IMG/VR virus record: IMGVR_UViG_3300045963_000248
Span: 20,510-84,509 of that record
DNA length: 64,000 nt
Strand: one strand, 5' to 3'
DNA from: a virus
Taxonomy: Duplodnaviria; Heunggongvirae; Uroviricota; Caudoviricetes
Positions 541 to 35,431 of this stretch are shown piece after piece. The notes under the pieces were generated by a model. The model did no database searches, was not told the DNA's origin, and saw nothing but the letters and a program-made list of their open reading frames with translations. Every line of letters begins with the position of its first letter. Positions within the stretch are counted from its first letter, which is position 1. The position numbers and the translations under genes were made by a program.

Positions 541-577
541 TACACACTATTTTCAATAATTTAACAACTTAATGTAG
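541..577 (+). promoter_or_regulatory. phage late-promoter motif copy 1 (TACACA-N14-TTAACAACTTA-ATG-TAG)
   Basis: one of ten near-identical bipartite motifs, all + strand, upstream of structural operons. Confidence 0.6.
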
Positions 578-684
578 AGAGTCTGAGTAAAACAAGTCAG
601 ACCGACACTTTAGAGTGTTATAGGGAATTCCCAGCAAGCTGCTAACGGAGTAACCAGACTTTCTTTTTAAAACAGGATGTTTAT

Positions 685-960
685 ATGCGAAAGAATGACA
701 TGTATTTTTTACTAGTATTATTATTTATTGTAAAATTGATAGCCTTGCCTATTGGATTCCCTGATGCAGCAGTACTTTTAGTATTATTAGCTTATCGACC
801 AGTATCTCAGCTTTTAAAACTGCAGGAAAAACAGAAAATTTCAAATGAGAATGCTGTAAAGTTTGCTGAAGTGGAAAATTCTTTAGAAAATATGCAGAAA
901 ACTATAGAGTCAATAAAAATTAAAGAAGCTATTGTTAACCAATTTGGTGGGAAAAGATAA
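685..960 (+). CDS. small membrane protein
   Basis: hydrophobic N-terminus; first ORF after late promoter copy 1; start overlaps next gene (ATGA). Confidence 0.45.
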   Translation: MRKNDMYFLLVLLFIVKLIALPIGFPDAAVLLVLLAYRPVSQLLKLQEKQKISNENAVKFAEVENSLENMQKTIESIKIKEAIVNQFGGKR

Positions 961-1385
961 TGACTAATTTATTAGATCTAACACAATTTCGTACTTTGAA
1001 AGAGCTTCAAGATTATGCAAATGCTCAATTTTTGACTATCAGCACTATGAAAGAAAAACTCGACGATCAAAAAAATAAGATAGCTCACTTGGAATCTTTA
1101 CTTGTAAATAAAGCTACAGTACTCGGAGTAGATTCGCAATCAGAAGAGATTGCTAAAATTGAAATAAATCGCATGTATCAAAAAGTTTTAAAAGCTCCTC
1201 TAGATTTTGCAGAAGTGAAAGCATTAGAAACGTTTACAAAAATACTTTTAGCGGCTAAAGGTAAAGAAGTTGACGAGAAAAAAGAAAAGAAAACTGAAAA
1301 AGCTTTAAAGCAATTATCACCGCAGGAATTAATTAATATTGCATTACAAAAAACTCCAGAAGAGCAGGAATCTGAAGGTAACTAA
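960..1385 (+). CDS. coiled-coil protein; candidate small terminase subunit by position only
   Basis: 141 aa, translationally coupled upstream of HNH + large terminase. Confidence 0.45.
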   Translation: MTNLLDLTQFRTLKELQDYANAQFLTISTMKEKLDDQKNKIAHLESLLVNKATVLGVDSQSEEIAKIEINRMYQKVLKAPLDFAEVKALETFTKILLAAKGKEVDEKKEKKTEKALKQLSPQELINIALQKTPEEQESEGN

Positions 1386-2026
1386 TGTCACGGGAAGATT
1401 ATTTAAAACGTCGAGAAGCTCAATTAAAATATAAAGCAGATAAACTGCGTAATAGAACCCCAGAGCAAATTGAGTTAGATCGAATTAAATCAAAAGAGTA
1501 CCGGATCGCTAATAAAGAGCGCATTAGAGAAGCTCAAAAAAAATATTACAATGATAACAAAGAGACGTTATTACAAGATGCTCAAGAATATCGAGATAGT
1601 CACCGAAAACAGATCTCCGAGAGAAACTTAAAAAAATATAAATCTGATAAACAGAAAATTCTAACTAAAAATAGAAATTACTATTACAAAAATAAAGATA
1701 GAGTTAAAGCTCAGAGAGATCAGTATCGTAGTGAAAATTTAGCGCAACATAATCATCGAAGTGCTCTGCGACATGCGGTAAAATTAAAAGCTACTCCAAA
1801 ATGGTTAACGGAAGAAGATATTTTAAACATTAAAGCTGTGTATAAAAAAGCAAAAGAGTTACAGGAGTTAGATGGGATTCCCCGAGAAGTAGATCATATA
1901 GTTCCCTTACAAGGTGAAACAGTATCAGGTTTGCATGTTCCTTGGAATTTACAAATCTTAACTAAATCTGAAAATTCCAGTAAAAAAAATAAGTTATTAG
2001 AGGAGATAGCATGTCAAGTACATTAA
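1385..2026 (+). CDS. HNH endonuclease (terminase-associated), basic YxxNK repeats + C-terminal HNH
   Basis: C-terminal GIPREVDHIVPLQGETVSGLHVPWNLQILTKSEN motif; paralog of 7843..8418 and 8873..9517; overlaps terminase start. Confidence 0.8.
   Translation: MSREDYLKRREAQLKYKADKLRNRTPEQIELDRIKSKEYRIANKERIREAQKKYYNDNKETLLQDAQEYRDSHRKQISERNLKKYKSDKQKILTKNRNYYYKNKDRVKAQRDQYRSENLAQHNHRSALRHAVKLKATPKWLTEEDILNIKAVYKKAKELQELDGIPREVDHIVPLQGETVSGLHVPWNLQILTKSENSSKKNKLLEEIACQVH
1781..1960 (+). repeat. dispersed repeat (HNH C-terminal domain coding), copy 1 of 3
   Basis: ~75-80% nt identity to 8195..8375 and 9281..9460. Confidence 0.6.
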
Positions 2027-3447
2027 CTCCTGCAGAAGCCCGTAAAGCAATATGGTTAAGCGGGAACATTGTAGATTTTCTACTAGATGCAAATCAGAAA
2101 GAAATCTATAAACAATACAAAGAATCTAGAAGGAAAACTCAAGTCGTAGTTTTAGCTAGACAGATGGGAAAGTCTTATGGACTTCTTACAATCGGAGTAC
2201 AAGAATGCCTATTACGTCCTAATATTACAGTCCACTATATAGCTCCGCGATTAAATCAAGGTAAGAAGATTGTAAGAGCTACTTTTCAAGAAATTTTTAA
2301 AACATGCCCTAAAGAATTAAGACCTGAATATAAAACTCAAGAATCCTGTTATATATTCCCTAATGGGAGTAGACTAGAGCTTGGAGGCTTTAATGCGGGG
2401 GAAATTGAATCTCAACGAGGTCCAAAATCGAACCTAATAATTTGTGATGAAGCTGGTTTCTGTGATGGATTAAATTACGGATTGCGATCTGTTCTATTTC
2501 CTAAATTAAATAGTACTAAAGGAAAAATGTTACTCTGTAGTACTTTACCAAAATCTGCAGCTCATGAATATTGGGAGATTGTAAAGAAGGCAGAATACGA
2601 TGGAACTCTCCTAAAAAAAGATATATTTGACTGCCCTAGGTATACTAAAGAAGAGATAGATAGTTTCGCAGAAGAGGTAGGTGGCTATGACTCCGTAGAT
2701 TTTCAACGTGAGTACAAATGCATGATGATTACGGACCAAGAATCCGCAGTATTCCCAGAAGCTACCGAAGAAAAAATGGCAAATATTATAAAAGAAAATA
2801 AACGTCCAGCATTTTACGATAGCTATGCAGCAATGGATATTGGTTTTCGAGACTATACTGCAGTAATATACGGATATTATGATTTTTTAAAAGGTAAAAT
2901 AATAATTGAAGATGAAATACTTTTAAAAGGTAGTAAAGTTACTACTAATTCTTTAGCGGGACTTATAAAAATTAAAGAAGATGAATTATTTCCTTCAAAG
3001 CCAGTATACCTTCGAGTATCAGATAATAATAATCCTATTTTTCTAAACGATTTAGCACAAGAGCCTCACAAATTGTATTTTATGCCAACGCTAAAAGACG
3101 ATAAGGATTCTGCAATCAGTAAAGTGAGATTATTAATCCAACAGGAAAAGATAATAATCCACCCGCGATGTAAAACACTAATTAACCACGTAAAATACGC
3201 AACTTGGGATAGTAAAAGAAGTAAATTCGAAAGAGACTTACAAAATGGTCACTTTGACGCAGCAGATGCTTTAATTTACCTGGTGCGAAACATTCAATTA
3301 CAAAAAAATCCCTATCCAAATAGTTATTTTCTCCCCGAAGGTGTTCTCTGGGATACTACCGACCGAAATGCTCCTAAAAACGATTTTGAAAAGAATATGA
3401 AGGAACTTTTTAATCCATTTCGTAAAAAAGAACAGAAAATCTCTTAA
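2011..3447 (+). CDS. terL: terminase large subunit
   Basis: Walker A-like VVLARQMGKS, Walker B IICDEAGF, C-terminal nuclease-like region; 478 aa; position before portal. Confidence 0.85.
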   Translation: MSSTLTPAEARKAIWLSGNIVDFLLDANQKEIYKQYKESRRKTQVVVLARQMGKSYGLLTIGVQECLLRPNITVHYIAPRLNQGKKIVRATFQEIFKTCPKELRPEYKTQESCYIFPNGSRLELGGFNAGEIESQRGPKSNLIICDEAGFCDGLNYGLRSVLFPKLNSTKGKMLLCSTLPKSAAHEYWEIVKKAEYDGTLLKKDIFDCPRYTKEEIDSFAEEVGGYDSVDFQREYKCMMITDQESAVFPEATEEKMANIIKENKRPAFYDSYAAMDIGFRDYTAVIYGYYDFLKGKIIIEDEILLKGSKVTTNSLAGLIKIKEDELFPSKPVYLRVSDNNNPIFLNDLAQEPHKLYFMPTLKDDKDSAISKVRLLIQQEKIIIHPRCKTLINHVKYATWDSKRSKFERDLQNGHFDAADALIYLVRNIQLQKNPYPNSYFLPEGVLWDTTDRNAPKNDFEKNMKELFNPFRKKEQKIS

Positions 3448-3459
3448 AAATCTCCAAAA

Positions 3460-3496
3460 TACACATAAATAATCAATATTTAACAACTTAATGTAG
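3460..3496 (+). promoter_or_regulatory. phage late-promoter motif copy 2
   Basis: TACACA 3460..3465, 14-nt spacer, TTAACAACTTA 3480..3490, TAG 3494..3496. Confidence 0.6.
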
Positions 3497-3525
3497 CACG
3501 AAGCTCTATAAAAATAGGTGAATAA

Positions 3526-5610
3526 ATGGTAACTACTTCAAATCGTAAAATCGAATCGACATATTTTGCCGCTAAATCCGATCCTCTGGAAGTAGCAGTT
3601 ACAGTAATGGATAAAGTAGAAACTTTTACTCAAACTCTTCGAGGTTTAGGTATTCACCAAAAACTAAGAGACTGCTGGGCAGCTTACCACGGAGCATATT
3701 ACAACACTTTCGGCGGCGGGCACCAAATTACTTTCGGCGGCGAGCAAGGTGAACTTTCTCACTTACCGATAAACCACATTAGAAATATTGCTCAACACAT
3801 GAAAACAATGACTCTAGCTTCTAGACCTAGTTTTGATGCCAGAGCAGCAAATACCGACCCAAAATCGCTTATACAAGCTCAATTAGCTTCAGGCTTACTA
3901 GATTACTATATGCGTGAAAAACGCTTAGAAAGATACATTTCTACAGCCGTGGAATACGCTATTGTTTTAGGAGCCGGGTACGTAAAGACAGCTTGGGACC
4001 AAGGACAAGGAAAAATTACAGAAAGAGATACTGACGAGGAAGGAAGAGACGTAATAATCCGTGAAGGTGATATTACTTTTTCCAACCTCTCCCCTTTTGA
4101 AGTTATTTACGACTTATCGAAACAAGATCAAAATCACGATTGGCTAATTACAGTAGAATTCAAAAATAGATACGATATTATTGCAAAGTTCCCGGAGCAC
4201 GAATCTGAAATTTTAGGGCTTGGCGGAAAAGACGAATGGCAAGGGTTAATTTTTAACAAAACTATGGCTACGGAAGAAATTCCAGTGTTTACTTTTTTCC
4301 ACAGACCTACAGATTCAGTACCTGACGGAAGAGAGATCATTTTAGTATCTGAAAACTGTGTTTTAACAGATCAGCCGCTACCGTACAAAGAAATACCAGT
4401 TTATCGAGTTTCCCCGAACGACGTTTTGGGAACTGCAATGGGTTACGCTAACATTTACGATTTATTGCCAATTCAAGATGCAATTAATACTTGCTATACT
4501 TCAGTATTTTCAAATCAAGTTGCTTTTGGGACACAAAACCTATTTGTCGAAACTGGAAGTAATATTTCCATGTCAAATTTAGGCGGCGGATTAAATATTA
4601 TCGAAGGGTTAAAAAAACCAGAAGTGTTACAACTTTTAGGAACATCCCCCCAAAGTTTTCAGTTAATTACTATGCTAGAAAATCTAATGGAAACACTTTC
4701 AGGGATAAACTCAGTCACCCGGGGTAATCCAGAAGCTAATTTAAAATCAGGAACATCTTTAGCTATGGTGCAATCTATGGCAGTACAGTTTATTTCTGGT
4801 TTACAGCAACAATATGTATGTTTACTAGAAGATGTTGGTACAGGTGTAATTAATATTCTAAAAGATTATGCTACAGAGCCGAGAGTAGCCAGTATAGTTG
4901 GAAAAAATAATAAAGCTTATTTGAAAACTTTTAAATCTGATGATTTACAAGAAGTAAATAGAGTAATTGTAGACGTAGGAAATCCTCTTGCAAAAACTAC
5001 TGCAGGAAGAATGGAAATTGCACAACAATTAATGCAAATGAAGCCTGACGACTTTACTATTGCTCAATTTATACAGTTAATTAATACTGGTAATTTAGAT
5101 GTAATGACAGATAGATCAACTAAAAAAATTAATCAACTAGAAATGGAAAATGAAAGACTAATGGCAGGAACTCCTGTAAAAGCTTTTGCATTTGACGACC
5201 ATATTGAACACATAAAAGAACATACAAGTTTACTAGACGATCCAGATATTCGTGAAAGTGACGAATTAAATGCTGCAGTATTAGCACATATTCAAGAACA
5301 CATCGATTTATCGAGAAACACTGACCCTGCAGTACAGCAAGCGTTAGGACACCAAGTTTTACCTCCTCTACCGCCGCCAATGCCAATGGACGCAAACGGT
5401 AATCCGTTACCTCCGCCTCCAGTAGGTCCAGATGGACAGCCTTTACAGGTTCCACCGGCAAATGCTCAGGGAGCTATGCAAAATGATGCTGGAAATATGC
5501 CTAATCCACCGGCACCTACTCCTAATTTACCAAATGTTCCACAGGGAGCAGAAGTTCAAGCAACAAATCCGCAAGATATGCTAAGTATTGTCGCAGGTCA
5601 GAAAAGTTAA
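3526..5610 (+). CDS. portal protein (Pro-rich C-terminal tail)
   Basis: 694 aa directly after large terminase; size and position typical of portal; C-terminal PPLPPPMP... low-complexity tail. Confidence 0.7.
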   Translation: MVTTSNRKIESTYFAAKSDPLEVAVTVMDKVETFTQTLRGLGIHQKLRDCWAAYHGAYYNTFGGGHQITFGGEQGELSHLPINHIRNIAQHMKTMTLASRPSFDARAANTDPKSLIQAQLASGLLDYYMREKRLERYISTAVEYAIVLGAGYVKTAWDQGQGKITERDTDEEGRDVIIREGDITFSNLSPFEVIYDLSKQDQNHDWLITVEFKNRYDIIAKFPEHESEILGLGGKDEWQGLIFNKTMATEEIPVFTFFHRPTDSVPDGREIILVSENCVLTDQPLPYKEIPVYRVSPNDVLGTAMGYANIYDLLPIQDAINTCYTSVFSNQVAFGTQNLFVETGSNISMSNLGGGLNIIEGLKKPEVLQLLGTSPQSFQLITMLENLMETLSGINSVTRGNPEANLKSGTSLAMVQSMAVQFISGLQQQYVCLLEDVGTGVINILKDYATEPRVASIVGKNNKAYLKTFKSDDLQEVNRVIVDVGNPLAKTTAGRMEIAQQLMQMKPDDFTIAQFIQLINTGNLDVMTDRSTKKINQLEMENERLMAGTPVKAFAFDDHIEHIKEHTSLLDDPDIRESDELNAAVLAHIQEHIDLSRNTDPAVQQALGHQVLPPLPPPMPMDANGNPLPPPPVGPDGQPLQVPPANAQGAMQNDAGNMPNPPAPTPNLPNVPQGAEVQATNPQDMLSIVAGQKS

Positions 5611-5655
5611 ATATGAAGTGGTGTAAAAAACAAATACGATAAAAGAGGGTAAGAA

Positions 5656-6369: not shown

Positions 6370-6697
6370 AACGTTTTACATACCAGTGTTTTGAAATATC
6401 AGGTCTTCTATAAGGTATTTTAGTATTATATTTGTATACACCGTTTAGCCAAGCATACGCTACGTGCTCAGGGGAATCCGTTCCAATAGTTTTTACCACA
6501 AAATCGTAACCTAAAGATGCTTTCTGTATTTCAGACAGTTTTACATTTTTGTATTTAAATGCTTTTTTAGCGTCCGAGAGGAATTTAGGCATAATGCCGT
6601 ATTCACCTTTTGCAGAGGAAGCATGTTGTAAATATTTCCCGTCTGAGGATTCGAGATAGCGTATAATTTTTAATGTTTCAGTTTTTTGCATATCCAT
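6269..6697 (-). CDS. putative lysozyme-like / lytic transglycosylase (SLT-like) protein; convergent moron in head module
   Basis: ES...GxxGIMP...AYAWLNG resembles SLT family motifs (ES / GLMQ / AYNxG); own sigma70 promoter 6704..6732 (-); 100-nt 3' overlap with 5656..6369. Confidence 0.4.
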   Translation of the reverse strand: MDMQKTETLKIIRYLESSDGKYLQHASSAKGEYGIMPKFLSDAKKAFKYKNVKLSEIQKASLGYDFVVKTIGTDSPEHVAYAWLNGVYKYNTKIPYRRPDISKHWYVKRFKASVSSDLKVHRMLASLPAPLVPELRLWTAGK

Positions 6698-6703
6698 AAA
6701 ACT

Positions 6704-6733: not shown

Positions 6734-6772
6734 TACACAAAAACAGATCAAATTTAACAACTTATACTGTAG
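6734..6772 (+). promoter_or_regulatory. phage late-promoter motif copy 3
   Basis: TACACA 6734..6739, N14, TTAACAACTTA 6754..6764, TAG 6770..6772; 31 nt identical to copy 4. Confidence 0.6.
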
Positions 6773-6812
6773 CAAGCAATAATGCCCTACAACTATAGCC
6801 TACCCCGAAAGG

Positions 6813-7757: not shown

Positions 7758-7785
7758 GATTAACTAAAATTTAACCCCTAACTGA

Positions 7786-7808
7786 GGGAGCTTATGGCTC
7801 CCTTTTCT
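7786..7808 (+). terminator. intrinsic terminator (GGGAGC-TTATG-GCTCCC + TTTT)
   Basis: 6-bp GC-rich stem 7786..7802 then T-run 7803..7806, after scaffold gene. Confidence 0.55.
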
Positions 7809-7841
7809 ACACAAAAACAGATCAAATTTAACAACTTATAG
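7808..7841 (+). promoter_or_regulatory. phage late-promoter motif copy 4 (start codon 7843 lies 2 nt after TAG: near-leaderless)
   Basis: TACACA 7808..7813, N14, TTAACAACTTA 7828..7838, TAG 7839..7841. Confidence 0.6.
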
Positions 7842-7842
7842 T

Positions 7843-8418
7843 ATGAAACATTGTAAAAAGTGTAATACTTTAAAGTTAAAAATTGAATTCCATAAAAATA
7901 AATCATTGAAAGATGGGCTATATGGAACTTGTAAAATTTGTACTAGAGCTATCAATAAACAATATACCAAAAACAATCCGGACATTATAAAAAAATCTAG
8001 TAGAAAATCTTATATTAAAAATAAAGATAAGATACTTTTAGAGAATAAAAAATGGGCAGAAAATAATACTGAAAAAGTAAAAGCTATAAAAAATAAATGG
8101 GCTAATAAACACATAGACCAAAAAAGAAGTAAAAATAGAAGGTGGAAAAAGGAAAATCCAGATAAAGTTAATGCTCAAACTGCTAAACGTCGAGCTGCTA
8201 AATTACAAGCAACTCCTCCTTGGATATCTGAGGAGCATTTAAAAGAAATAGAAAAATTCTATACGGAAGCTAAAAGGTTAGAAGCTACAGATGGAATTCC
8301 TCGAGAAGTGGATCATATATTACCTCTACAAGGGGATGGAGTTTCCGGTCTTCACGTTCCTTGGAATTTACAAGTTATTACTGAGTTTGAAAATAGAAGT
8401 AAACATAATAAATACTGA
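7843..8418 (+). CDS. HNH endonuclease with N-terminal CxxC zinc ribbon
   Basis: CKKC...CKIC ribbon, basic NK repeats, C-terminal AKLQATPPWISEEHL...GIPREVDHILPLQGDGVSGLHVPWNL motif. Confidence 0.8.
   Translation: MKHCKKCNTLKLKIEFHKNKSLKDGLYGTCKICTRAINKQYTKNNPDIIKKSSRKSYIKNKDKILLENKKWAENNTEKVKAIKNKWANKHIDQKRSKNRRWKKENPDKVNAQTAKRRAAKLQATPPWISEEHLKEIEKFYTEAKRLEATDGIPREVDHILPLQGDGVSGLHVPWNLQVITEFENRSKHNKY
8195..8375 (+). repeat. dispersed repeat (HNH C-terminal domain coding), copy 2 of 3
   Basis: ~75-80% nt identity to 1781..1960 and 9281..9460. Confidence 0.6.
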
Positions 8419-8586
8419 GAGTGAGACACTATGCTCATAAACTGTTCCCGAAAAAGAGACACATTCTAGGTAGCGAGAGGTCGGGATAAAAAAACCTATG
8501 CTGTTAAAACCTAGAGCCTTTGGTAGTTTCGGCGGTAAGAAACATGTAAACTATTTTATCACCCAGACTTCTTAGGGATTCTGGCG

Positions 8587-8618
8587 GCAAGGCTTCTTCG
8601 GAAGCCTTTGCTTTTTTA
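8587..8618 (+). terminator. intrinsic terminator (AAGGCTTC-UUCG-GAAGCCTT + T7)
   Basis: 8-bp stem with UUCG tetraloop 8589..8608, T-run 8612..8618. Confidence 0.6.
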
Positions 8619-8647
8619 TTGACTTGTATTTAAAAACATGATAGAAT
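8619..8647 (+). promoter_or_regulatory. sigma70-type promoter (TTGACT-17-TAGAAT)
   Basis: ttgact 8619..8624, tagaat 8642..8647, 17-nt spacer. Confidence 0.5.
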
Positions 8648-8653
8648 ACAATT

Positions 8654-8710
8654 CTCCTTAGATAAAAGTTGCTTTCCAGAAGAGCCGCTACTCACAGAGC
8701 GGCTTTTTTA
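8654..8710 (+). ncRNA. candidate small RNA (~57 nt) bounded by promoter 8619..8647 and terminator 8683..8710
   Basis: no ORF or start codon; promoter and terminator only ~35 nt apart. Confidence 0.35.
8683..8710 (+). terminator. intrinsic terminator (AGCCGCT-loop-AGCGGCT + T6)
   Basis: 7-bp stem 8683..8689 / 8698..8704, T-run 8704..8709. Confidence 0.6.
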
Positions 8711-8718
8711 TTTCTCCC

Positions 8719-8738
8719 GAAATTAACACTACAGTTAA
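8719..8738 (+). promoter_or_regulatory. degenerate late-promoter-like copy (AAATTAACACTACAGTTAAT)
   Basis: partial match to TTAACAACTTA..TAG core without the upstream TACACA half. Confidence 0.3.
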
Positions 8739-8768
8739 TATTAGGAGACAAACTAGAAAATTCCTCTA

Positions 8769-8787
8769 AAATTAACACTATAGTATG
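8769..8787 (+). promoter_or_regulatory. degenerate late-promoter-like copy (AAATTAACACTATAGTATG)
   Basis: core resembles copy 4/5 (TTAACA[A]CT[T]ATAGTAT) but with 2-nt deletion and no upstream half. Confidence 0.3.
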
Positions 8788-8821
8788 TATTAAATTTTGA
8801 CATGTTTTTGTATCAAAAAAC

Positions 8822-8855
8822 TGCATAAAAAACCTTTACAATTAACAACTTATAG
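8822..8855 (+). promoter_or_regulatory. phage late-promoter motif copy 5
   Basis: TGCATA 8822..8827, N14, TTAACAACTTA 8842..8852, TAG 8853..8855. Confidence 0.55.
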
Positions 8856-8872
8856 TATAAAGTATAGTTGAG

Positions 8873-9517
8873 GTGACTGTGAAAACTTGTACAAAGTGCG
8901 GCATTGAAAAAGAATTAACGGTTGATAATTTTAAACCAAGAAAGAAGTCTAAAGATGGATTTAGAAATGATTGTAGAGTATGTTCTAATTTAAAACATGC
9001 GGAATGGACTATTGAGAATTTAGATAAAGCAAAAGCTAATCAAGCTAGATGGTATCAGAATAATAAAGAACATGCCAAAATAGTTCAAGATAAATATTAC
9101 CAAGACAATAAAGAAAAGAAATTAGCACAGCAAAAAATTTATCGCAAAAATAATAAAATAAAAATAGATTTGAAAAATAAAAACTGGGCAGATAAGAATC
9201 CTGCTAAAATAAAACAGTATAATAAAGAATTCGGACAAAGACATCCTGACAAAATTGCAGCAAAAACTGCAAAAAGACGAGCTGCTAAACTACAAGCCAC
9301 TCCTCCGTGGCTTACAGAAGAGCACTTAAAGCAAATTGAAGATTTATATACTGAGTCTAAACGACTAGAAGCTTTAGATGGGATTCCTCGTGAAGTTGAT
9401 CATATCATACCGTTATTAGGGGAGACTGTTAGAGGTTTACACGTGCCTTGGAATTTAAGAGTAATTACGGCTAAAGAAAACGGTAGTAAAAACAATAAGT
9501 TAATTCTAATAGATTAA
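8873..9517 (+). CDS. HNH endonuclease with N-terminal CxxC zinc ribbon (GTG start; alternative GTG at 8879)
   Basis: CTKC...CRVC ribbon, basic NK repeats, C-terminal AKLQATPPWLTEEHL...GIPREVDHIIPLLGETVRGLHVPWNL. Confidence 0.8.
   Translation: MTVKTCTKCGIEKELTVDNFKPRKKSKDGFRNDCRVCSNLKHAEWTIENLDKAKANQARWYQNNKEHAKIVQDKYYQDNKEKKLAQQKIYRKNNKIKIDLKNKNWADKNPAKIKQYNKEFGQRHPDKIAAKTAKRRAAKLQATPPWLTEEHLKQIEDLYTESKRLEALDGIPREVDHIIPLLGETVRGLHVPWNLRVITAKENGSKNNKLILID
9281..9460 (+). repeat. dispersed repeat (HNH C-terminal domain coding), copy 3 of 3
   Basis: ~75-80% nt identity to 1781..1960 and 8195..8375. Confidence 0.6.
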
Positions 9518-9520: not shown

Positions 9521-9557
9521 TACGCAACTTTCATTAAATTTTAACAACTTAATATAG
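9521..9557 (+). promoter_or_regulatory. phage late-promoter motif copy 6 (capsid operon)
   Basis: TACGCA 9521..9526, N14, TTAACAACTTA 9541..9551, TAG 9555..9557; followed by 130-nt leader with CCUC-UUCG-GGGG stem-loop. Confidence 0.6.
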
Positions 9558-9691: not shown

Positions 9692-10939
9692 ATGGCAAAC
9701 GTTGCCGCAGACCTAACCCGATTAAACGGGCTTGTTAAAGAAGTGTATGGAGATAGTGTTATTGAACTTATTCCAATACAATCTAAACTTCAATCAATCA
9801 TTAAATTCGCTGAGAGAAACAAAACTCCAGGGAACTTTTTCTCTCAACCTTTAGCTCTTCAATTAGAGCACGGTGTAACTTATGCAGATGGTGACGATGG
9901 AGCTTTCGCTCTTAACGACGCTATTTCTTCTGTAGTTAAACATGCAAGAGTACGCGGTTCTCAAATGCTTTTGAGATCAGTAATCGCTTACGAACTTCTT
10001 GCAGCAGCTAATACAAAAGACAACAGATCTTTTGAAAACGCTACAAAATATATCGTTCAAGCAATGGTAGATTCTATGTCTAAAAAACATGAAGTATCAT
10101 TAATGTACGGTGGTAACAACATCGGTATCGTTTCTGGAGCAGTAACTTCTGCAGTTTCGATCACTGACGCTGAATGGGCACCAGGTATCTATTCAGGTGC
10201 AAAAGATATGAAAGTTGACATCTTTGACTCTGCAAAATCAGTGTTAAGAGGAACTTTCGTAATTTCAGGTGTTGACTTCGACCTTAAAAAAATTACTATG
10301 ACAACTGACGCTGCTGCGGCTGGTGTTGTTGCTACAGACGTAATCCTTCCTGCTGGTGCATACCAAATCGGTGGATCTTCTGCTGGTAAAGAAATGGTAG
10401 GATTACACGAAATCCTAGCTAACACTGGTACACTTTTCGAAATTTCTGCTGCTCAGTATGAATTATGGAAAGGTAACGTGTATAACGCTGGTGGAGAATT
10501 AACTTTCGAAAAACTTATTAAAGCAATGGCTCGTCCGGCTGAAAAAGGTTTAGAAAAAGACGTTATCGCTATCGTTAACCCAAAAACTTGGTCATCTTTA
10601 ATGAAAGATCAAGCTGCTTTAAGAAGATTTGACTCTTCATACAGCACTAAGAAATTAGATAACGGTGCAATGGCTATCGAATTTTATTGTCAATCAGGTA
10701 AAATTGAAGTTCAATCTTCTATTTACTGTAAAGAAGCTTACGCTTATATCTTCAATGCTGAAGACATGAAACGTATTGGTTCTACAGACATCACTTTCCA
10801 ATTACCAGGATTACCAGATAATTTCTTAACTCAAGCTCCAAACAATGCTGGATATGAATTAAGATGTTACGTAAACTCTGCATTATTCTGTAGAGCGCCA
10901 GGTAAGACTTTATTGATTACGGGTATCACGCATCCATGA
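9692..10939 (+). CDS. major capsid protein
   Basis: 415 aa after scaffold; own promoter, long leader, strong terminator downstream; composition typical of a highly expressed structural protein. Confidence 0.65.
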   Translation: MANVAADLTRLNGLVKEVYGDSVIELIPIQSKLQSIIKFAERNKTPGNFFSQPLALQLEHGVTYADGDDGAFALNDAISSVVKHARVRGSQMLLRSVIAYELLAAANTKDNRSFENATKYIVQAMVDSMSKKHEVSLMYGGNNIGIVSGAVTSAVSITDAEWAPGIYSGAKDMKVDIFDSAKSVLRGTFVISGVDFDLKKITMTTDAAAAGVVATDVILPAGAYQIGGSSAGKEMVGLHEILANTGTLFEISAAQYELWKGNVYNAGGELTFEKLIKAMARPAEKGLEKDVIAIVNPKTWSSLMKDQAALRRFDSSYSTKKLDNGAMAIEFYCQSGKIEVQSSIYCKEAYAYIFNAEDMKRIGSTDITFQLPGLPDNFLTQAPNNAGYELRCYVNSALFCRAPGKTLLITGITHP

Positions 10940-10966: not shown

Positions 10967-10995
10967 GAAGGCGAGAATTTCTCGCCTTCTTTTTA
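10967..10995 (+). terminator. intrinsic terminator (GAAGGCGAG-AATTT-CTCGCCTTC + T5)
   Basis: 9-bp GC-rich stem 10967..10989, T-run 10990..10994, right after capsid gene. Confidence 0.7.
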
Positions 10996-11014: not shown

Positions 11015-11530
11015 ATGATTAAATTTTTAATAAAATGTACAGAATGTCTAGAGGAGAAAAGTGAATCTGAATTTCATGGAGATCCTTTAAAAATTAATAG
11101 AAGAAGATCTAATTGTAAAAAGTGTGAGAATGCCAGGTGTGCTAGGTATTTTCAAAATAATAAAGAAAAGCGTAATGCTTATCAATTAGAGCGTCACCAT
11201 AAACGTAAACTAAGTGATCCTATGTATATTTTAAAACGTCGCTATAGGAATCGCCTTAAAAAAGTATTTCGCTACAAAGGCATTGTAAAAGTAACTTCCT
11301 CCATGGAATTCCTAGGATGTACCGCAGAAGAGTTTAAAGTTTATTTTGAAAGCTTATTTTCCCCCGAAATGAACTGGGATGCCGTTTACGCGGGAAAAAT
11401 CCATATCGACCATATTATCCCAATTTCCACCGCCAAAACAGAAGAAGAATTAGTAAAACTGTCACATTACACTAATTTACAACCTCTCTGGGCTGTTGAT
11501 AACTTGAAAAAAGGCTCCGGGGACATTTAG
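11015..11530 (+). CDS. HNH-family endonuclease-like protein with N-terminal Cys cluster
   Basis: CTEC...CKKC N-terminus; C-terminal HIDHIIPIS...N..PLW..DN motif. Confidence 0.55.
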   Translation: MIKFLIKCTECLEEKSESEFHGDPLKINRRRSNCKKCENARCARYFQNNKEKRNAYQLERHHKRKLSDPMYILKRRYRNRLKKVFRYKGIVKVTSSMEFLGCTAEEFKVYFESLFSPEMNWDAVYAGKIHIDHIIPISTAKTEEELVKLSHYTNLQPLWAVDNLKKGSGDI

Positions 11531-11539: not shown

Positions 11540-11575
11540 TACACACTTTACATCTATTTTTAACAACTTATATAG
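11540..11575 (+). promoter_or_regulatory. phage late-promoter motif copy 7 (ATG only 9 nt after TAG)
   Basis: TACACA 11540..11545, N14, TTAACAACTTA 11560..11570, TAG 11573..11575. Confidence 0.6.
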
Positions 11576-11584
11576 AGGTAAACC

Positions 11585-12052
11585 ATGTCTATAATTGTCA
11601 CAGTAAATAATATACCATTTAACTTACCTACAGAAGGTGAACCTGCTCCGTGGGGCGAGTCGCTTACAAATTACCTTGCTGAAGTTGCCGCTGTTTTAAA
11701 CTCTTTAAAAGGTGCTAACGACATTTTGGAAACTGGTGCAAACATTGCATTAAATCAAACTACTTTTGCCGATATTCAAGATTTTAAATTTAATCCAAAT
11801 ACAGTAAGATCTTTTATTGTTAACGGAAGTATTTCCCGAACTACAGACTCAGTAAAACAATATGAACAATTTACATTAACAGGATTACGCACCGACACAG
11901 ATTGGATACTATTCCAAGAAGGACTCGGGGATACAGGTGTAATTTTAGATATAACAAATGCCGGTCAGGTACAGTATAAATCTTCTACGATTTCCGGAAG
12001 TAATTATGCTGGTAAAATACTATTTAGAGGAATCGCAGTTGCACAAAGTTAA
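11585..12052 (+). CDS. structural protein (function unknown)
   Basis: 155 aa, first ORF of fibre operon. Confidence 0.45.
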   Translation: MSIIVTVNNIPFNLPTEGEPAPWGESLTNYLAEVAAVLNSLKGANDILETGANIALNQTTFADIQDFKFNPNTVRSFIVNGSISRTTDSVKQYEQFTLTGLRTDTDWILFQEGLGDTGVILDITNAGQVQYKSSTISGSNYAGKILFRGIAVAQS

Positions 12053-17986: not shown

Positions 17987-18242
17987 GAAATTAAAAGCTT
18001 GGGTACATAAAGGAAATTCTCTAGGGATACCATTTCCGGTGTTTAGGGACCCTTTATCAGGTCGTGGGAGTATTTCTGCAACTTTAGTATTTATTAGCTC
18101 AATTTGTGTAGTACTTAGCTTAGTTACAAAAATAATAGATCATTCTGGTAGTTTTTCATTTTTTATAGCATCCTGTTCATTATATTTTGGAAGAAAAGCC
18201 CAAACTAAAGCAGATTCGCTTCCAGACGACAAAACTACCTAA
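17979..18242 (+). CDS. small membrane protein
   Basis: two hydrophobic segments (ISATLVFISSICVVLSLV / FFIASCSLYF). Confidence 0.35.
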   Translation: MFEKLKAWVHKGNSLGIPFPVFRDPLSGRGSISATLVFISSICVVLSLVTKIIDHSGSFSFFIASCSLYFGRKAQTKADSLPDDKTT

Positions 18243-18272
18243 AAATCATTAAAATTTAACAACTTATTGTAG
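18236..18272 (+). promoter_or_regulatory. phage late-promoter motif copy 8
   Basis: TACCTA 18236..18241, N14, TTAACAACTTA 18256..18266, TAG 18270..18272. Confidence 0.55.
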
Positions 18273-18296: not shown

Positions 18297-19052
18297 ATGG
18301 CATCATCTGGTAAATTCGGGATTAAGAAATTACAAAAATCTTCGGGTTCGCTGGGAGTGTTCGATATTATCGACGATTCACAAATACGTATTATTGTGGA
18401 AAATGCGGGCGTAACCAATATTGTAGCTGTATACGGAAAAATACAGGGACAGAATTCTTACCAGCTTTTAGACACAGTAGTGGGCAGTACAAATAAACTC
18501 ATCGATGTTTCTTTGTATGATTTTTTAGATTTAGAAGTAGTTACTTACGACTCAAATAGTAATTATATAGATATTGCAGGTTCTGGATTTAGCAATGTAA
18601 CAGTTTCTGGAGGCGGGGGAGGTCCCGCGAGCAGCGTAACGGTTACGAATTTTCCAAATCCGCAGAATGTAGTTGTAACAAATGCTCCACACGTAATTGT
18701 AGATAATTTACCTGTAGGAGTTACTAAGAGTGTTTTTAACGAGGTTTTAGCAGTAGCTAGTGGGGTAACAACAGTATTAATTACCTATACTGTACCAGCA
18801 GGAAAAACTGCAGTATTGGAAAAAGCTTTCGCATCCGGGGACAATATTGGACAATATAATGTCTTTGTAAACGGAGTGAGAATAGATAGCATGAAAACTT
18901 ATTTTGGCGGAGCTTTAAACGTTAATTTTGATTTCAGCTCAGGTTATAGCGGATACGCATTAGCAACTGGAGACGTAGTAGTAGTAAAAGTTTTACATAC
19001 TAGACCAACTCCTGGAGATTTTACAGCAAGAATACAAATATCGGAGAATTAA
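18297..19052 (+). CDS. fibre-like structural protein (Gly-run SGGGGGP)
   Basis: 251 aa, beta-rich composition similar to N-terminus of 25385 protein (GVFDIIDDSQIRIIVENAG vs GEFDVTSYDKIVFSTEHAG). Confidence 0.5.
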   Translation: MASSGKFGIKKLQKSSGSLGVFDIIDDSQIRIIVENAGVTNIVAVYGKIQGQNSYQLLDTVVGSTNKLIDVSLYDFLDLEVVTYDSNSNYIDIAGSGFSNVTVSGGGGGPASSVTVTNFPNPQNVVVTNAPHVIVDNLPVGVTKSVFNEVLAVASGVTTVLITYTVPAGKTAVLEKAFASGDNIGQYNVFVNGVRIDSMKTYFGGALNVNFDFSSGYSGYALATGDVVVVKVLHTRPTPGDFTARIQISEN

Positions 19053-20183: not shown

Positions 20184-20594
20184 ATGGCGGATCTAACTGA
20201 ATTACAAGCAGCATTACCCTCTAAGATCATAGGAAGTGATCTTACTGGTAATGAGACAAACGCAGTAAATGCTACTCCTACTGGTGACTTAACAGTATCA
20301 GATGGACTTAGTGCTGGCGGGCTTGTCGGCAATTTAAATTTGGTTACAGCTAATACAGCTTACGAAGCAAAAGTTTCGACTAGTAGATTAACAAATAGAA
20401 AGATTTTAACAATAGTAGCATTCGATGCTGATATGTTTTTTGGAATGAGTAATACTGTAACTACAAGTACAGGATTTCCCCTCTATAAAGGACAATCAGT
20501 ATCGTTTTCTATTGATGCAAACTCTCCAACATTTCAAGTGTGGTTAGTTTGCTCTGGTGCAAATAAAAATGCAAGAATAATGGAGACTCCATAA
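20184..20594 (+). CDS. hypothetical structural protein
   Basis: 136 aa, coupled to neighbours. Confidence 0.45.
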   Translation: MADLTELQAALPSKIIGSDLTGNETNAVNATPTGDLTVSDGLSAGGLVGNLNLVTANTAYEAKVSTSRLTNRKILTIVAFDADMFFGMSNTVTTSTGFPLYKGQSVSFSIDANSPTFQVWLVCSGANKNARIMETP

Positions 20595-27627: not shown

Positions 27628-27664
27628 TACATAAAATTAGAGTATTTTTAACAACTTAATGTAG
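27628..27664 (+). promoter_or_regulatory. phage late-promoter motif copy 9
   Basis: TACATA 27628..27633, N14, TTAACAACTTA 27648..27658, TAG 27662..27664. Confidence 0.55.
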
Positions 27665-27681: not shown

Positions 27682-28107
27682 ATGAAAGAATTTACAGACT
27701 TACTTAAAAAGAAAGCCGCAGAGCAAGCAGATGCTCCAAAAAGCTCACATGAAATGGAAGCAAAAGCATCAGCTATTAAATCGTTAATGGCAAGCTTAAA
27801 AGATCACATGGGTGGAGAATTAAAAGACGGTTTGAAAAAAGTAACTGTCGCTTCTAATTCACCGGAGGGTCTTGAAAAGGGTTTGGACCTAGCGAAAAAA
27901 GTAGTTCCGACAGGCATGGATCATAGTGCTCCAACTCCAAAAGGTGTTGAAGAATTAATGCACGAAAATGATGATGAAGAAATGGATGAATCTCCAGAAA
28001 TGGAAGCATCTGAAGATGAGTCAGCAGAAAATGGTTCTGACGAAGAAAGAAAAATTGCAGAACTTGAAAAACAACTTATGGAATTAAAAGCTAAAAAAAT
28101 GGCTTAA
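27682..28107 (+). CDS. acidic coiled-coil protein (assembly/scaffold-like)
   Basis: 141 aa, D/E-rich C-terminus, SD aaggag. Confidence 0.45.
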   Translation: MKEFTDLLKKKAAEQADAPKSSHEMEAKASAIKSLMASLKDHMGGELKDGLKKVTVASNSPEGLEKGLDLAKKVVPTGMDHSAPTPKGVEELMHENDDEEMDESPEMEASEDESAENGSDEERKIAELEKQLMELKAKKMA

Positions 28108-32428: not shown

Positions 32429-32436
32429 GAAACTAA

Positions 32437-32844
32437 ATGGCAAAAAGAGCTTTAAATGTTAAAAAGATTAATTCTGCAGATTTTACAGCTTCAAATAATG
32501 AAGACATAAAAAAACTCGGAAGATCGCTAAATCCTTTTTTTGATAGTATTACGCAGGTTTTAAATAAAGGGCTTACAGTAGCTCAACATTTACCTTTTGA
32601 ATACCAGGAATTTGAAGTTGAAGTGGATGCATTTGGAGTTCCGAAGTCTCCGCTAAAGATGTCTACAGAACTTGTAGCTCCAGTGAAAGGGATGATTGTA
32701 GTTAATGCTTTTGCAACAGGAAGCGCCCCTACAGCAACTCCATTTGTAGTTTCTACCACGGATAAAAATATTATAACAGTTTCCCGAGTAACGGGATTAC
32801 CAGCAAATACTAAATTTAAAATAACAGCAATGGTTGTGAGTTAA
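32437..32844 (+). CDS. hypothetical structural protein
   Basis: 135 aa. Confidence 0.45.
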   Translation: MAKRALNVKKINSADFTASNNEDIKKLGRSLNPFFDSITQVLNKGLTVAQHLPFEYQEFEVEVDAFGVPKSPLKMSTELVAPVKGMIVVNAFATGSAPTATPFVVSTTDKNIITVSRVTGLPANTKFKITAMVVS

Positions 32845-32846
32845 AA

Positions 32847-34958
32847 ATGTCAGATCCTAATGAAGATTTAAAAAACAAACTAGGTAACGAGTACGATTTG
32901 TATTCTGGACTTAAGGATAAATTCCAAGGTTTCGATAAAGAAGGTAATGCTACTTTTGATGACGAGGGAAAAGTATCCTCTTTTAGTAAAAATGACTTTG
33001 CAAAAATGAACGAGCAGTTAAAAAAAGACTTCGGGGATAAATCTTACGAAGATACATTTAATCAAAATCAATATAAAGATTTAGCAAATAGCGGAAATAA
33101 ATTTCAAGGATTTGCCGGAGATCAGGCAATCTTTAGAAATGAAAAAGGTGACTTGGAGAATTTTGGTAATCAGGGTGGATTTGCCAGCTTTTTAAAAAAG
33201 CAACAGCCTAATGCACAATTTGATATATCGAAGCAAGGGCAGTCCCAGAGAACTAGTAATAGCTATAATGCTAATTTAGATTTTCTTGGGCAAAAGCAAG
33301 GCGCTCAGCAAAAAACAAATTCTGGATTTTCTCAGTATGTTCCGCAAAAAGCTTTAGCGAATACTTCGAAAAATTTAATGAATCCGGCAGCGGCAACTGA
33401 CGATGCACAGGAAGATACAGCTCCAGATTTATCTCAAAGTGTAACACCTCCAAGTTTACCAGAAACTCCAGGTGGAACTTTCGAAAGTTTTAAAACAAAA
33501 CAAACAACTAAAAGTGGATTTAGTCAACCAGTTTCTAAAAATCCAAATGTAAAGAAAAAAGCTCCTCCTCGCCTAGGCGCACCAGCTCCTACTTTAGGCG
33601 GAATGGCAACAGGAATGTTGCAGAATCAAGCTGAGAAAAAGTTAGGTGATGTACAAGATCAAGCTTCAATGCTTGGTAACGAACATTTACAGGATGCTAC
33701 CGGAACTAACGTAGATTTTGCTTCTTTAGCAAATGGAAATATTTCAAATAACGTTCAAAATTTAGCAAAAAAACAAGTAGCTCAGCAAGCTACTCAGCAA
33801 GGGCAGGAATTCCTAGATGCTAACGATCCTACTGGTGGAGCACTTTCTGGAGCTATGGATTATAAAAATTTACTAAACGGAAACATTGCACAGAATGTTC
33901 AAAATTTAGCAAAACAACAATTAAGTAATACAGTAAAAAATCAAGCAACTTCATATTTAAGTAGTATCGATCCTACAGGCGGGATGGCTGTGCAAGGATT
34001 AAATGCTGCAAAATCTCTTACCGGCGGCGGAAGCGTAGTCGATAAAGGACAAGCTGCAGGACAATTAGCTGCACGAGCTGCTGCAATGAATGCGCTAGGC
34101 GCTGCTACAGGTGGCATGGGTTATTTAGCTAATCCGGAATTACTACAAGGCGCTGCTGGATTAACAGATAAATTAGGACAGAATTTAGGTCCTGCTGGAT
34201 TTGTAACTAAGCCCGGAAGTATTGCTTTAACGGCAGGGGCAAAAGGACTAAACGCAGGATTAGACCTTAGCGGTAAAGTTGGCGGAGAAGCAGTTAGAGG
34301 TTTTAAAAATGCCGGAGAAGGCGTTGCAAAAATAGGAACAGAAGGATTAGATGAAGTAGCAAAAGCTCCAGGAGCTGTAGGAAATTTACTACAAAAATTC
34401 TTACAAAATCCAGGAACAATAGCTAAAGGAATTGGGAATGCCGGGAAAGCGGCAGTAGCAAAAGCAGCCGACGTTGCTCGTGCTGCAGCAAATGCAGTTT
34501 CTCGAGTCGTTAGCTGGGTATGCTTTACACCTGATACTGAAATATTAATGGCAAACGGTAAATACAAAAAAATAAAACAAATTAAGTTAGGCGAAGAAGT
34601 AATGCTAGGCGGAAAAGTTACAGCAATCGGAACTGCAATGGCAAAAGATTTATATCTTTATGACGGCGTAGAAGTTTCCGAAGGGCATGCTCTTTACGAA
34701 AATGGGATTTGGTTACGTGTAGAGGATAGTAGATATGCTGTTAAAATTGACCAAGACGAAGAATTTCTAGTTTACCCGATGGCAACTGAAAATCACTTAG
34801 TAGTTACAAAAGGTCAGATTTGGGCAGATATTATGGAAACAGATGATAAACATAATCAAACTGAGGACGGAAGAATCCAAGAATTAAATAATCAAAAACA
34901 TGCAAACTCTTTACTAGATATGTTTTTAAAAAGCTACTTTACTAAAAAGAAAAAATAA
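32847..34958 (+). CDS. virion protein with Q/N/G-rich repeats and C-terminal Hint (intein-like autoprocessing) domain
   Basis: imperfect repeats N(I/V)(S/A)(N/Q)NVQNLAK(K/Q)Q; Hint block A CFTPDTEILMANG and block B SEGH near C-terminus. Confidence 0.65.
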   Translation: MSDPNEDLKNKLGNEYDLYSGLKDKFQGFDKEGNATFDDEGKVSSFSKNDFAKMNEQLKKDFGDKSYEDTFNQNQYKDLANSGNKFQGFAGDQAIFRNEKGDLENFGNQGGFASFLKKQQPNAQFDISKQGQSQRTSNSYNANLDFLGQKQGAQQKTNSGFSQYVPQKALANTSKNLMNPAAATDDAQEDTAPDLSQSVTPPSLPETPGGTFESFKTKQTTKSGFSQPVSKNPNVKKKAPPRLGAPAPTLGGMATGMLQNQAEKKLGDVQDQASMLGNEHLQDATGTNVDFASLANGNISNNVQNLAKKQVAQQATQQGQEFLDANDPTGGALSGAMDYKNLLNGNIAQNVQNLAKQQLSNTVKNQATSYLSSIDPTGGMAVQGLNAAKSLTGGGSVVDKGQAAGQLAARAAAMNALGAATGGMGYLANPELLQGAAGLTDKLGQNLGPAGFVTKPGSIALTAGAKGLNAGLDLSGKVGGEAVRGFKNAGEGVAKIGTEGLDEVAKAPGAVGNLLQKFLQNPGTIAKGIGNAGKAAVAKAADVARAAANAVSRVVSWVCFTPDTEILMANGKYKKIKQIKLGEEVMLGGKVTAIGTAMAKDLYLYDGVEVSEGHALYENGIWLRVEDSRYAVKIDQDEEFLVYPMATENHLVVTKGQIWADIMETDDKHNQTEDGRIQELNNQKHANSLLDMFLKSYFTKKKK
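34521..34805 (+). other. Hint / bacterial-intein-like domain within CDS 32847..34958
   Basis: Cys1 at 34521..34523 (CFTPDTEILMANG), SxxH (SEGH), C-terminal ENHLVV; followed by 50-aa tail. Confidence 0.6.
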
Positions 34959-34959
34959 T

Positions 34960-35388
34960 ATGGAAATAAAAAATTACAATCCGGAAGATTACTCAGTATT
35001 GCAAGAATGGTTTAAGCAGTACGAATGGGAAGAGTGTATTCCGGGAACAATTACAAAAAATGCATATATGGTTTACAATAATAATAAACCAGTTGCTTTT
35101 TCGTATTTTGTATCGACAGATTGTAACATAGCTTTTTTAGGATTTGTACTTACAGATAAAACAGCAGGGATGAAATCTAGAAATGACGCTTTAGATTTGC
35201 TACTTAAACATATTTTTGAGCAAGCTAAGTTAGCCGGCTTTGAATTTATGTATTTTTTCACAGATACTAAAGCAGTAGTTTCTCGTATGGAGAAGTTGAA
35301 ATTAATGCAAGTAGTTAATAATACAAAAGGGTATAAATTAGTAGGTAGTTTAAATGGAAGCCCTATTGATTTTTTCTACGAAGATTAG
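34960..35388 (+). CDS. possible GNAT-family acetyltransferase-like protein
   Basis: 142 aa; IAFLGFVLTDK ... LLKHIFEQAKLAGFEFMYF spacing resembles GNAT motif A/B; weak. Confidence 0.35.
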   Translation: MEIKNYNPEDYSVLQEWFKQYEWEECIPGTITKNAYMVYNNNKPVAFSYFVSTDCNIAFLGFVLTDKTAGMKSRNDALDLLLKHIFEQAKLAGFEFMYFFTDTKAVVSRMEKLKLMQVVNNTKGYKLVGSLNGSPIDFFYED

Positions 35389-35395
35389 TAATAGT

Positions 35396-35431
35396 TACAC
35401 ACATTTAGTGTATTTTTAACAACTTATATAG
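35396..35431 (+). promoter_or_regulatory. phage late-promoter motif copy 10
   Basis: TACACA 35396..35401, N14, TTAACAACTTA 35416..35426, TAG 35429..35431. Confidence 0.6.

Follow-up and report, generated by a model that had tools for sequence, protein, structure and literature searches.

The window analysed here is a stretch of 64,000 nucleotides (nt) of viral DNA (positions 20,510 to 84,509 of IMG/VR record IMGVR_UViG_3300045963_000248). It covers most of one phage genome, of 36% G+C, in which a short intergenic motif recurs ahead of the structural genes. This motif is almost certainly the late (virion-gene) promoter of the phage. The + strand of the first 40.6 kb carries the genes for terminase, portal, major capsid, tail and internal-virion proteins, with four free-standing HNH/endonuclease VII-like genes scattered through the module. 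From 40.6 to 64 kb the genes lie on the − strand and specify ClpP, a deoxynucleoside monophosphate kinase, an exonuclease, a family A DNA polymerase, a primase-helicase, ERF and a PD-(D/E)XK nuclease, together with many small open reading frames (ORFs). An identical or near-identical genome is represented by a Logan contig of 83,281 bp and by a Joint Genome Institute (JGI) contig. Two loci from near-identical contigs, L126 and L128, supply ~10 kb of flank on each side of the window; by coordinate arithmetic, window and flanks make up the ~83-kb genome with a gap of ~0.3 kb. Megablast of 12 kb gave no close cultured relative. By tblastn, the capsid and portal proteins matched only a distant Silvanigrella phage (26–27% identical), which lacks the motif, and actinophage portals, and the same search with the family of a conserved 148-aa orphan protein from the leftward module gave no cultured relative. 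Relatives were found through the capsid protein (45–95% identity, contigs of 78–86 kb), and faint structural links lead to the SU10 portal and adaptor proteins. The source is best read as a new, uncultured ~83-kb podophage.

The motif consists of an 11-nt core, TTAACAACTTA, and an upstream hexamer box resembling TACACA. The exact core occurs ten times in the window (starts at 561, 3480, 6754, 7828, 8842, 9541, 11560, 18256, 27648 and 35416), against 0.18 ± 0.39 expected from dinucleotide-preserving shuffles. The bipartite pattern TRCNYA-N14-TTAACAACTTA retrieves the same ten sites, with 0.01 expected. The exact-pattern count thus recovers the ten + strand copies, with boxes starting from 541 to 35396, that had been found by eye in the initial annotation of this DNA, and the exact 14-nt spacing noted there holds in 10/10 copies. 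A position weight matrix derived from these ten sites, when run along both strands, scores the copies at 38–48 and the next best site in 128 kb at 6.2; the scores are bimodal and the window therefore holds no intermediate copies. All ten copies lie between + strand ORFs and none inside a gene, the upstream stop codon mostly falling 3–12 nt before the copy; the copies in relatives are mostly intergenic as well. This is the opposite of the equal density on both strands and inside genes that had been named as counting against a promoter. The copies are the following, where +1 is the putative start site discussed below.

541–577, + strand: copy 1; box TACACA at 541–546, core at 561–571, +1 at A576; a 109-nt leader to the gene of a 91-aa membrane protein (685), then the small and large terminase genes.
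3460–3496, + strand: copy 2; box at 3460–3465, core at 3480–3490, +1 at about A3495; 12 nt past the terminase stop codon, with the portal gene (3526) 31 nt on.
6734–6770, + strand: copy 3; box at 6734–6739, core at 6754–6764, +1 at about G6769; precedes the gene of a 314-aa head-module protein (6813).
7784–7807, + strand: intrinsic-terminator-like hairpin (GGGAGC..GCTCCC, then a T run) abutting copy 4.
7808–7844, + strand: copy 4; box at 7808–7813, core at 7828–7838, +1 at A7843, the first base of the start codon (ATG) of an HNH/endonuclease VII-like gene (7843–8418); leaderless, with no Shine-Dalgarno sequence.
8822–8858, + strand: copy 5; the weakest box, TGCATA, at 8822–8827, core at 8842–8852, +1 at about A8857, 16 nt upstream of the GTG start (8873) of a second HNH-like gene.
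9521–9557, + strand: copy 6; box TACGCA at 9521–9526, core at 9541–9551, +1 at about A9556; a 136-nt leader to the major capsid gene (9692–10939), the unit being closed by a strong terminator at 10967–10994.
11540–11576, + strand: copy 7; core at 11560–11570, +1 at about G11575, GAGG at +1 to +4, ATG at 11585; heads the operon encoding a 1633-aa protein.
18236–18272, + strand: copy 8; box TACCTA, core at 18256–18266, +1 at about A18271; overlaps the stop codon of the upstream gene, with the next gene at 18297.
27628–27664, + strand: copy 9; box TACATA, core at 27648–27658, +1 at about A27663; precedes the gene at 27682 and the internal-virion-protein operon.
35396–35432, + strand: copy 10; core at 35416–35426, +1 at about G35431; precedes the last late operon (35442–40640).

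Across the copies, the distance from the putative start site to the next start codon ranges from 0 to 136 nt. The hairpin and copy 4 form the only clear terminator-promoter pair in the window, and most copies are therefore internal promoters and not separate operon heads; placed 3–12 nt after a stop codon, they would act as internal boosters. The TAG described downstream of the core is present, but its position is loose. What is constant is a purine at the fifth nt after TTAACAACTTA (A in 7/10, G in 3/10), preceded by T in 8/10. Copies 3 and 4 share 33 identical nt (6734–6766 and 7808–7840), not the 31 first counted. Their recent duplication together with the HNH insertion is plausible, but gene conversion would explain the identity equally well; the counterparts of these two copies in the 95%-identical relative L003 differ from each other.

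Extending the search to the whole phage genome and its relatives, as the initial annotation had proposed, produced at least one further copy, the 11th, outside the window (L128 3302–3340, in the leftward module of the near-identical contig), and revealed the core to be widespread in relatives. There it lies at comparable places, ahead of the genes for portal, capsid and tail proteins. An initial scan of IMG/VR for the exact pattern TAC-N17-core gave mainly isolated matches attributable to chance, and only the 95% relative had several copies. With TTAACAACTAYNTATAG as the query, at least 120 IMG/VR stretches matched and at least 55 of these hold two or more cores, mostly on one strand; in many of them the terminase, portal, capsid and tail proteins are 25–70% identical to those of the window. 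Among the matches listed, the 9-mer TTAACAACT is intergenic in 115 cases and coding in 15. More distant genomes, reached through the 148-aa orphan (33–46% identity, contigs of 67–104 kb), tell the same story: in about 20 of 30, TTAACAACT is found on the late strand, 6–8 kb from the orphan gene and syntenic with copy 10. The core varies by lineage, being TTAACAACTTA in the window and L003, TTAACAACTAC/T in L001, L002, L004 and L005, and TTAACAAGTTA in L006, as is expected if the element co-evolves with a phage-encoded factor that reads it. The family logo, aaT-TTAACAACT-AT-aTAT-AG (ATAT in consensus form), is a single block from −17 to +2, with nothing informative beyond −18 on the upstream side. 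It follows that the TACACA box was added in the window/L003 lineage and is not a family feature. Within that lineage the TACACA-N14 spacing is equally invariant in 9/9 copies of L003. Accordingly, the bipartite description of the element stands for the window lineage, while the family-wide element is the single block.

The distance from TTAACAACT to the start codon was compared over 134 promoters. A spike stands at exactly 6 nt, made up of 7 cases and another 2 in which the first base varies; no case falls at 7, 8 or 10 nt, none of the genes in the spike has a Shine-Dalgarno sequence, and genes that have one begin at least 14 nt from the 9-mer. The leaderless arrangement recurs independently in L003, L005, L148, L205, L237 and L255, and twice in L006 (with the variant first base). 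Leaderless mRNAs must begin at the AUG and, therefore, the start site is placed at the seventh nt after TTAACAACT, the A of TAG. In copies 7 and 10, GAGG follows straight after TATA, from the presumed +1, with the ATG 10–11 nt after +1. From the sequence, we infer +1 to be an A (sometimes G) seven nt after TTAACAACT. The very short distances to the start codon first noticed in three copies are real (copy 4, at 4 nt from the 11-mer, and copies 7 and 10), and the leaderless spike and the Shine-Dalgarno sequence from +2 bear out the earlier argument against a −35 box and for a start of transcription at or inside the motif. In locus L205 (~1225–1265), two cores lie back to back as the palindrome TATATAGTTGTTAA/TTAACAACTTAATATATG between divergent genes, one of which is leaderless.

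With +1 so placed, TTAACAACT spans −15 to −7 and the A/T-rich segment −6 to −1. TACACA spans −35 to −30, with a 17-bp spacer to −12 in 10/10 copies. This layout of a −35 element, a 17-bp spacer, an extended −10 region and a start 7 nt past the −10 is the canonical geometry of the sigma70 family. The downstream edge of the −10-region element falls 6 nt upstream of the presumed +1, close to the spacing of about 6–8 bp in promoters of phage sigma factors such as phiEco32 gp36, 7-11 gp47, T4 gp55 and SPO1 gp28/34. The sequence itself is another matter. The hexamer at −12 to −7, ACAACT, matches the sigma70 −10 element at only 2/6 positions and has C at −11. A housekeeping sigma70 promoter was rejected on this ground, the genuine 12/12 promoters in the window showing the host consensus. 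An activator-dependent promoter of the MotA-box type was likewise rejected: there is no TAnnnT at −12 to −7, and the invariant block lies over −15 to +2, not at −30.

The motif precedes the structural and homing endonuclease genes, and TTGACA/TATAAT promoters occur in the leftward modules, both in the window and in relatives. Several 11/12 matches to the sigma70 consensus precede leftward genes in the window, and relatives carry many consensus sigma70 promoters in their replication modules, co-directional with the genes; L131, a replication-module locus, has no copy of the motif. It thus seems, from these distributions, that the family runs a programme of two tiers, in which the leftward early and replication genes depend on host sigma70 and the rightward virion and mobile endonuclease genes on the TTAACAACT promoter. 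The restriction of sigma70-like promoters proposed at the outset is upheld, the consensus ones lying on the early/replication side, plus two host-type promoters in tandem:

340–368, + strand: TTGACA-N17-TATAAT, perfect consensus.
404–431, + strand: TTGACA-N16-TATAAT, perfect consensus.

These two face the late operon, 110–200 nt upstream of copy 1, and suggest early read-in to the holin-like and terminase genes, or strong decoy or injection-end promoters. Between them and copy 1 there is no terminator, and the fold of 432–545 is unremarkable (z = 0.08). A divergent 11/12 sigma70 promoter (213–241, − strand) faces the endolysin operon. In L001 (~11290–11340) and L002 (~2750–2800) a sigma70-type TTGACT-N17-TAGAAT is superimposed on a copy of the late promoter, and the gene that follows the capsid gene may thus be expressed both early and late. 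The 11th copy, past the right end of the window, reads TACATA-N14-TTAACAACTTA-aggTAG and runs along the leftward genes (L128 3302–4418; the L128 + strand is the window − strand). It is followed by ~1.07 kb with no ORF of at least 40 aa on the same strand, the first ~650 nt of which have 44–48% G+C compared with ~32% nearby. This stretch has no Rfam match at E = 1, a fold z of −0.84 and nothing similar in the other loci compared; it may represent either a non-coding RNA transcribed late or the remains of a gene.

The search for the protein that reads the motif covered all sizeable ORFs of the window, L126 and L128. No T7-like RNA polymerase (RNAP) was found with Pfam, PHROGs or NCBIfam. In the ~83-kb genome, a regular-expression search met the T7 motifs A, B and C only in the DNA polymerase, and a pattern search for the DxDxD motif of two-barrel polymerases was negative; within the reach of sequence methods, a T7-like polymerase is excluded. 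The RNAP or sigma gene that had been anticipated outside the window is not recognisable in the flanks. A literature search with the motif string gave nothing relevant. The explanation we favour is that the late promoter of this new ~83-kb podophage is read by the host multisubunit RNAP core carrying a phage-specified, sigma-like specificity factor, comparable to phiEco32 gp36, phage 7-11 gp47 or T4 gp55, and we regard this as probable. In such a mechanism TTAACAACT, at −15 to −7, would act as a −10 region with an extended upstream part, the A/T-rich −6 to −1 segment would melt, and transcription would proceed from the A or G seven nt past TTAACAACT, while TACACA at −35 to −30 would have been gained in the window lineage as a second box. 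Early and replication genes on the other strand use TTGACA/TATAAT, and a switch to the motif would therefore turn on head, tail, packaging and free-standing homing endonuclease genes late in infection. The invariant block overlaps −15 to +2, which makes an ordinary activator unlikely and means that the reading factor must belong to the initiating polymerase.

Several results weigh against a sigma-like factor. No sigma factor was detected by Pfam, NCBIfam, PHROGs or a region-2 signature pattern. Searches with phiEco32 gp36, 7-11 gp47 and T4 gp55 were equally negative, both by phmmer and by hhalign against 22 conserved replication-module protein clusters; these searches work on sequences and profiles, which remote homologues can escape, and a usable structure model was obtained for one candidate only. 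The ACAACT hexamer at −12 to −7 is not known to resemble any sigma −10 element, and the contiguous −17 to +2 block, the A/T-rich −4 to −1 segment and the purine start are just as compatible with a T7-type promoter. A 135-aa protein with two helix-turn-helix-like domains (52144–52551) was considered as the reading factor and set aside, as it shows weak Crp-HTH and replisome-organizer matches, lies between the primase and polymerase genes and is not conserved in L131. One weak candidate is retained:

40632–41078, − strand: conserved 148-aa orphan; its gene is the final one of the leftward module and converges on the late operon's end.

Its family is present and syntenic in all relatives examined, is 59–99% identical among close genomes, and counts ~950 clusters in public data with the signature IDYDYLDKL..EK.WLN.F.EEY..ANF...LH..K..CY.RNNARNRD. 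AlphaFold modelled it with a predicted local distance difference test (pLDDT) score of 48 from a shallow alignment and 83.6 from a deep one. The latter model has no significant structural neighbour, and the profile has no match in solved structures, Pfam or PHROGs. Only position and conservation link this protein to transcription, and it is kept as a positional candidate for that reason. We consider it possible, if doubtful, that the motif is read by a new kind of specificity protein (a non-sigma70 sigma replacement or a small polymerase-reprogramming factor) from a conserved orphan gene such as that of the 148-aa family, or by a phage polymerase of unrecognised fold.

A self-sufficient phage RNAP, T7-like or of unrecognised fold, that binds the −17 to +2 block as duplex DNA is an unlikely explanation on present evidence. 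The family element is indeed one contiguous block of ~19 bp with no conserved −35, the copies are near-identical, with an A/T-rich −4 to −1 and a purine at +1, TTAAC at −15 to −11 stands in the register of the T3 promoter AATTAACCCTCACTAAAG, and the late module encodes proteins of 1633, 1002, 1099, 754 and 526 aa with no detectable homologues of known function. Yet the ORFs of the ~83-kb genome yielded no Pfam RNA_pol match in addition to lacking the polymerase motifs, and the large unassigned proteins are encoded within the very late operons they would need to transcribe. Promoters of the T7 type also have no −35 element, whereas the window lineage has one at the exact sigma spacing. T7-group promoters drift along with their polymerases; the core described here is unchanged across very divergent phages. 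The likeness to T3/SP6 promoters proposed in the initial annotation is therefore not upheld as a sign of a single-subunit polymerase, given that no polymerase gene was found and that TACACA at −35 to −30 is a feature of sigma holoenzymes. Its other suggestion, a phage sigma factor or activator, fits the geometry better but lacks a recognisable sigma gene. Use of a host alternative sigma factor, the phage borrowing the signal of a host regulon, would account for the undetectable phage sigma and for a 9-mer so unusually constant over a broad family, as if anchored to a conserved host protein. The sequence is not known to match any alternative-sigma consensus, however (sigma28, 32, 54, E, H or the ECF-type AAC/CGT), the lineage-specific core variants and the −35 box suggest co-evolution with a phage gene, and a scan of 185,579 genomes with the 148-aa orphan gave one phage-like contig, the protein and not the motif being the query. 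We judge this reading distinctly improbable.

It is very unlikely that the motif is a site for a late activator or sigma appropriator working with the host sigma70 holoenzyme, in the manner of T4 MotA/AsiA, Mu C/Mor or P2 Ogr. TACACA does match TTGACA at 4/6 positions, the leftward module encodes small helix-turn-helix proteins (52144–52551 and the N-terminus of 45186–46112), and a sigma70-like promoter overlaps one copy in both L001 and L002. Against this, an activator on the conserved block from −15 to +2 would clash with the polymerase, and the required TAnnnT at −12 to −7 is replaced by ACAACT. A TA-rich −10 further downstream would start transcription inside the leaderless ORFs and past the Shine-Dalgarno sequence of copies 7 and 10, and the 52144–52551 protein is undetectable at the same position in L131. 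Recognition at the RNA level, whether as a site of processing or as an enhancer of translation akin to the T7 gene 10 epsilon UUAACUUUA, has almost nothing to commend it beyond the superficial likeness of TTAACAACTTA to TTAACTTTA and the location of several copies 10–30 nt upstream of a Shine-Dalgarno sequence. The start codon lies anywhere between 0 and 136 nt away in the window, and as far as ~230 nt in relatives, one copy precedes an ORF-free region, and the leaderless cases leave no room for an enhancer. The upstream box at a fixed distance and the strictly intergenic location indicate recognition of DNA.

The element would be a sharply defined promoter with 9–11 invariant bases, a predicted start and an optional −35 module, belonging to a widespread family of ~70–100 kb phages that has no cultured member and no annotation. 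The motif allows late genes and transcription units to be called in the metagenomic contigs of this family. It also defines a search problem, as a conserved phage protein must read TTAACAACT and none resembles a known sigma factor or RNAP. Should that protein be a divergent sigma factor, the gp55/gp36 class would be extended; otherwise, a new way of redirecting bacterial transcription would be at hand. The single-element family and the bipartite lineage together constitute a natural experiment on the gain of a −35 contact.

Further features of the genome deserve description. Upstream of copy 5, a 403-nt spacer (8419–8821) contains two decayed cores, as read from the sequence, each with a 1-nt deletion:

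8722–8734, + strand: decayed core ATTAACACTACAG.
8771–8787, + strand: decayed core ATTAACACTATAGTATG.

They are probably remnants of earlier endonuclease-gene promoters. The same spacer holds a terminator (8589–8608), a sigma70-like promoter with a TG extension (8619–8647) and a second terminator (8683–8709), an arrangement that would yield an RNA of ~55 nt, and the whole spacer resembles the remains of an earlier mobile endonuclease cassette. The whole genome carries at least six free-standing HNH/endonuclease VII-like genes (1385–2026, 7843–8418, 8873–9517, 11015–11530 and 48778–49290 in the window, and L126 1539–2072). Three are paralogous, 43–45% identical to one L181 gene, and two own a late promoter, one of them leaderless. 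A 703-aa protein (32847–34958) has a weak Hint (intein-like) match. The structural module is heavily colonised by mobile elements. Two leaders are possible sites of regulation through leader RNA: that after copy 3 (GCAAGCAATAATGCCCTACAAC..., window 6766–6812), conserved in L003, L001 and L173 though the surroundings have diverged, and the 136-nt leader of the capsid gene, which contains the hairpin CCTCTTCGGGGG.

The early region includes, at 61545–63074 (− strand), a gene for an ice-binding-like secreted protein or lipoprotein (Pfam Ice_binding, E = 3e-67) beside a gene for a papain-family cysteine protease; both are probable morons. In the near-identical JGI contig the ice-binding gene measures 224 aa vs 263 aa. 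The 308-aa product of 45186–46112 (− strand) joins an N-terminal Myb/sigma-region-4-like helix-turn-helix (residues ~5–48) to an RNase H-fold 3'-5' exonuclease and a C-terminal zinc ribbon, an unusual fusion conserved at 74% in L181 and 57% in L131. Among the 185,579 species genomes, the only match for the 148-aa orphan was L297 (CAZRNW010000001.1, from an uncultured Flavobacteriaceae bin), a 34-kb phage-like contig with a TTAACAAGT promoter and seven near-consensus sigma70 promoters; the query was the protein, not the motif. Owing to this label a Bacteroidota-type promoter was considered and dismissed, as TAnnTTTG occurs 89 times in the window vs 75 ± 7 in shuffled sequence and the bipartite −33 TTTG/−7 TAnnTTTG pattern once vs 2.4 expected, which is no signal. 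Since L297 has sigma70-consensus promoters and the window shows no Bacteroidota promoter signal, the Flavobacteriaceae label is probably a binning artefact.

The element can be compared with several known systems. It resembles the T7, T3 and SP6 promoters in the contiguous family-wide block of ~20 bp reaching to the putative start site, in the A/T-rich −4 to −1 segment and the purine at the presumed +1, in the many copies, nearly identical and on a single strand, and, for T3, in the register of TTAAC. It departs from them in having no recognisable RNAP gene in the genome, in the extra −35 to −30 box of the window lineage, and in a core conserved far deeper than the promoters of the T7 group. 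The late promoters of T4 consist of TATAAATA at about −10 with no −35 element and are read by gp55 with gp33 and the sliding clamp; the element is near-invariant in a deep family and also serves free-standing homing endonuclease genes. The present promoter is like them in its single −10-region element, its deep invariance and the endonuclease genes it serves. It is unlike them in sequence, in the −35 box added by the window lineage, and in that no gp55-like protein was found and no sliding clamp recognised.

The closest experimentally characterised systems are those of the phiEco32-like phages. Promoters of phiEco32 gp36 have a single 9-bp element, tAATGTAtA, with the start 6–8 bp downstream, and those of phage 7-11 gp47 are bipartite, GTAAtg-N16-aCTA; the two divergent phage sigmas are only 15% identical (PMC8948821). 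The promoter sequence of the window is unrelated to either, no gp36 or gp47 homologue was found by phmmer or hhalign, and the capsid, portal and 148-aa orphan have no cultured relative save the distant Silvanigrella phage. The likeness lies in the organization. Both are podophages of ~77–90 kb whose late genes occupy one strand and whose early and replication genes occupy the opposite one, and faint structural links to the SU10 portal and adaptor run in the same direction. Host sigma70 would serve the early genes in both, a short conserved phage-specific element precedes the late genes, and the start would fall 6–8 bp past that element. The phiEco32-like group is split between single-element and bipartite promoters, just as the family and the window lineage are here. 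In kind, the element belongs to the known class of phage-specific late promoters, within which it is a new form.

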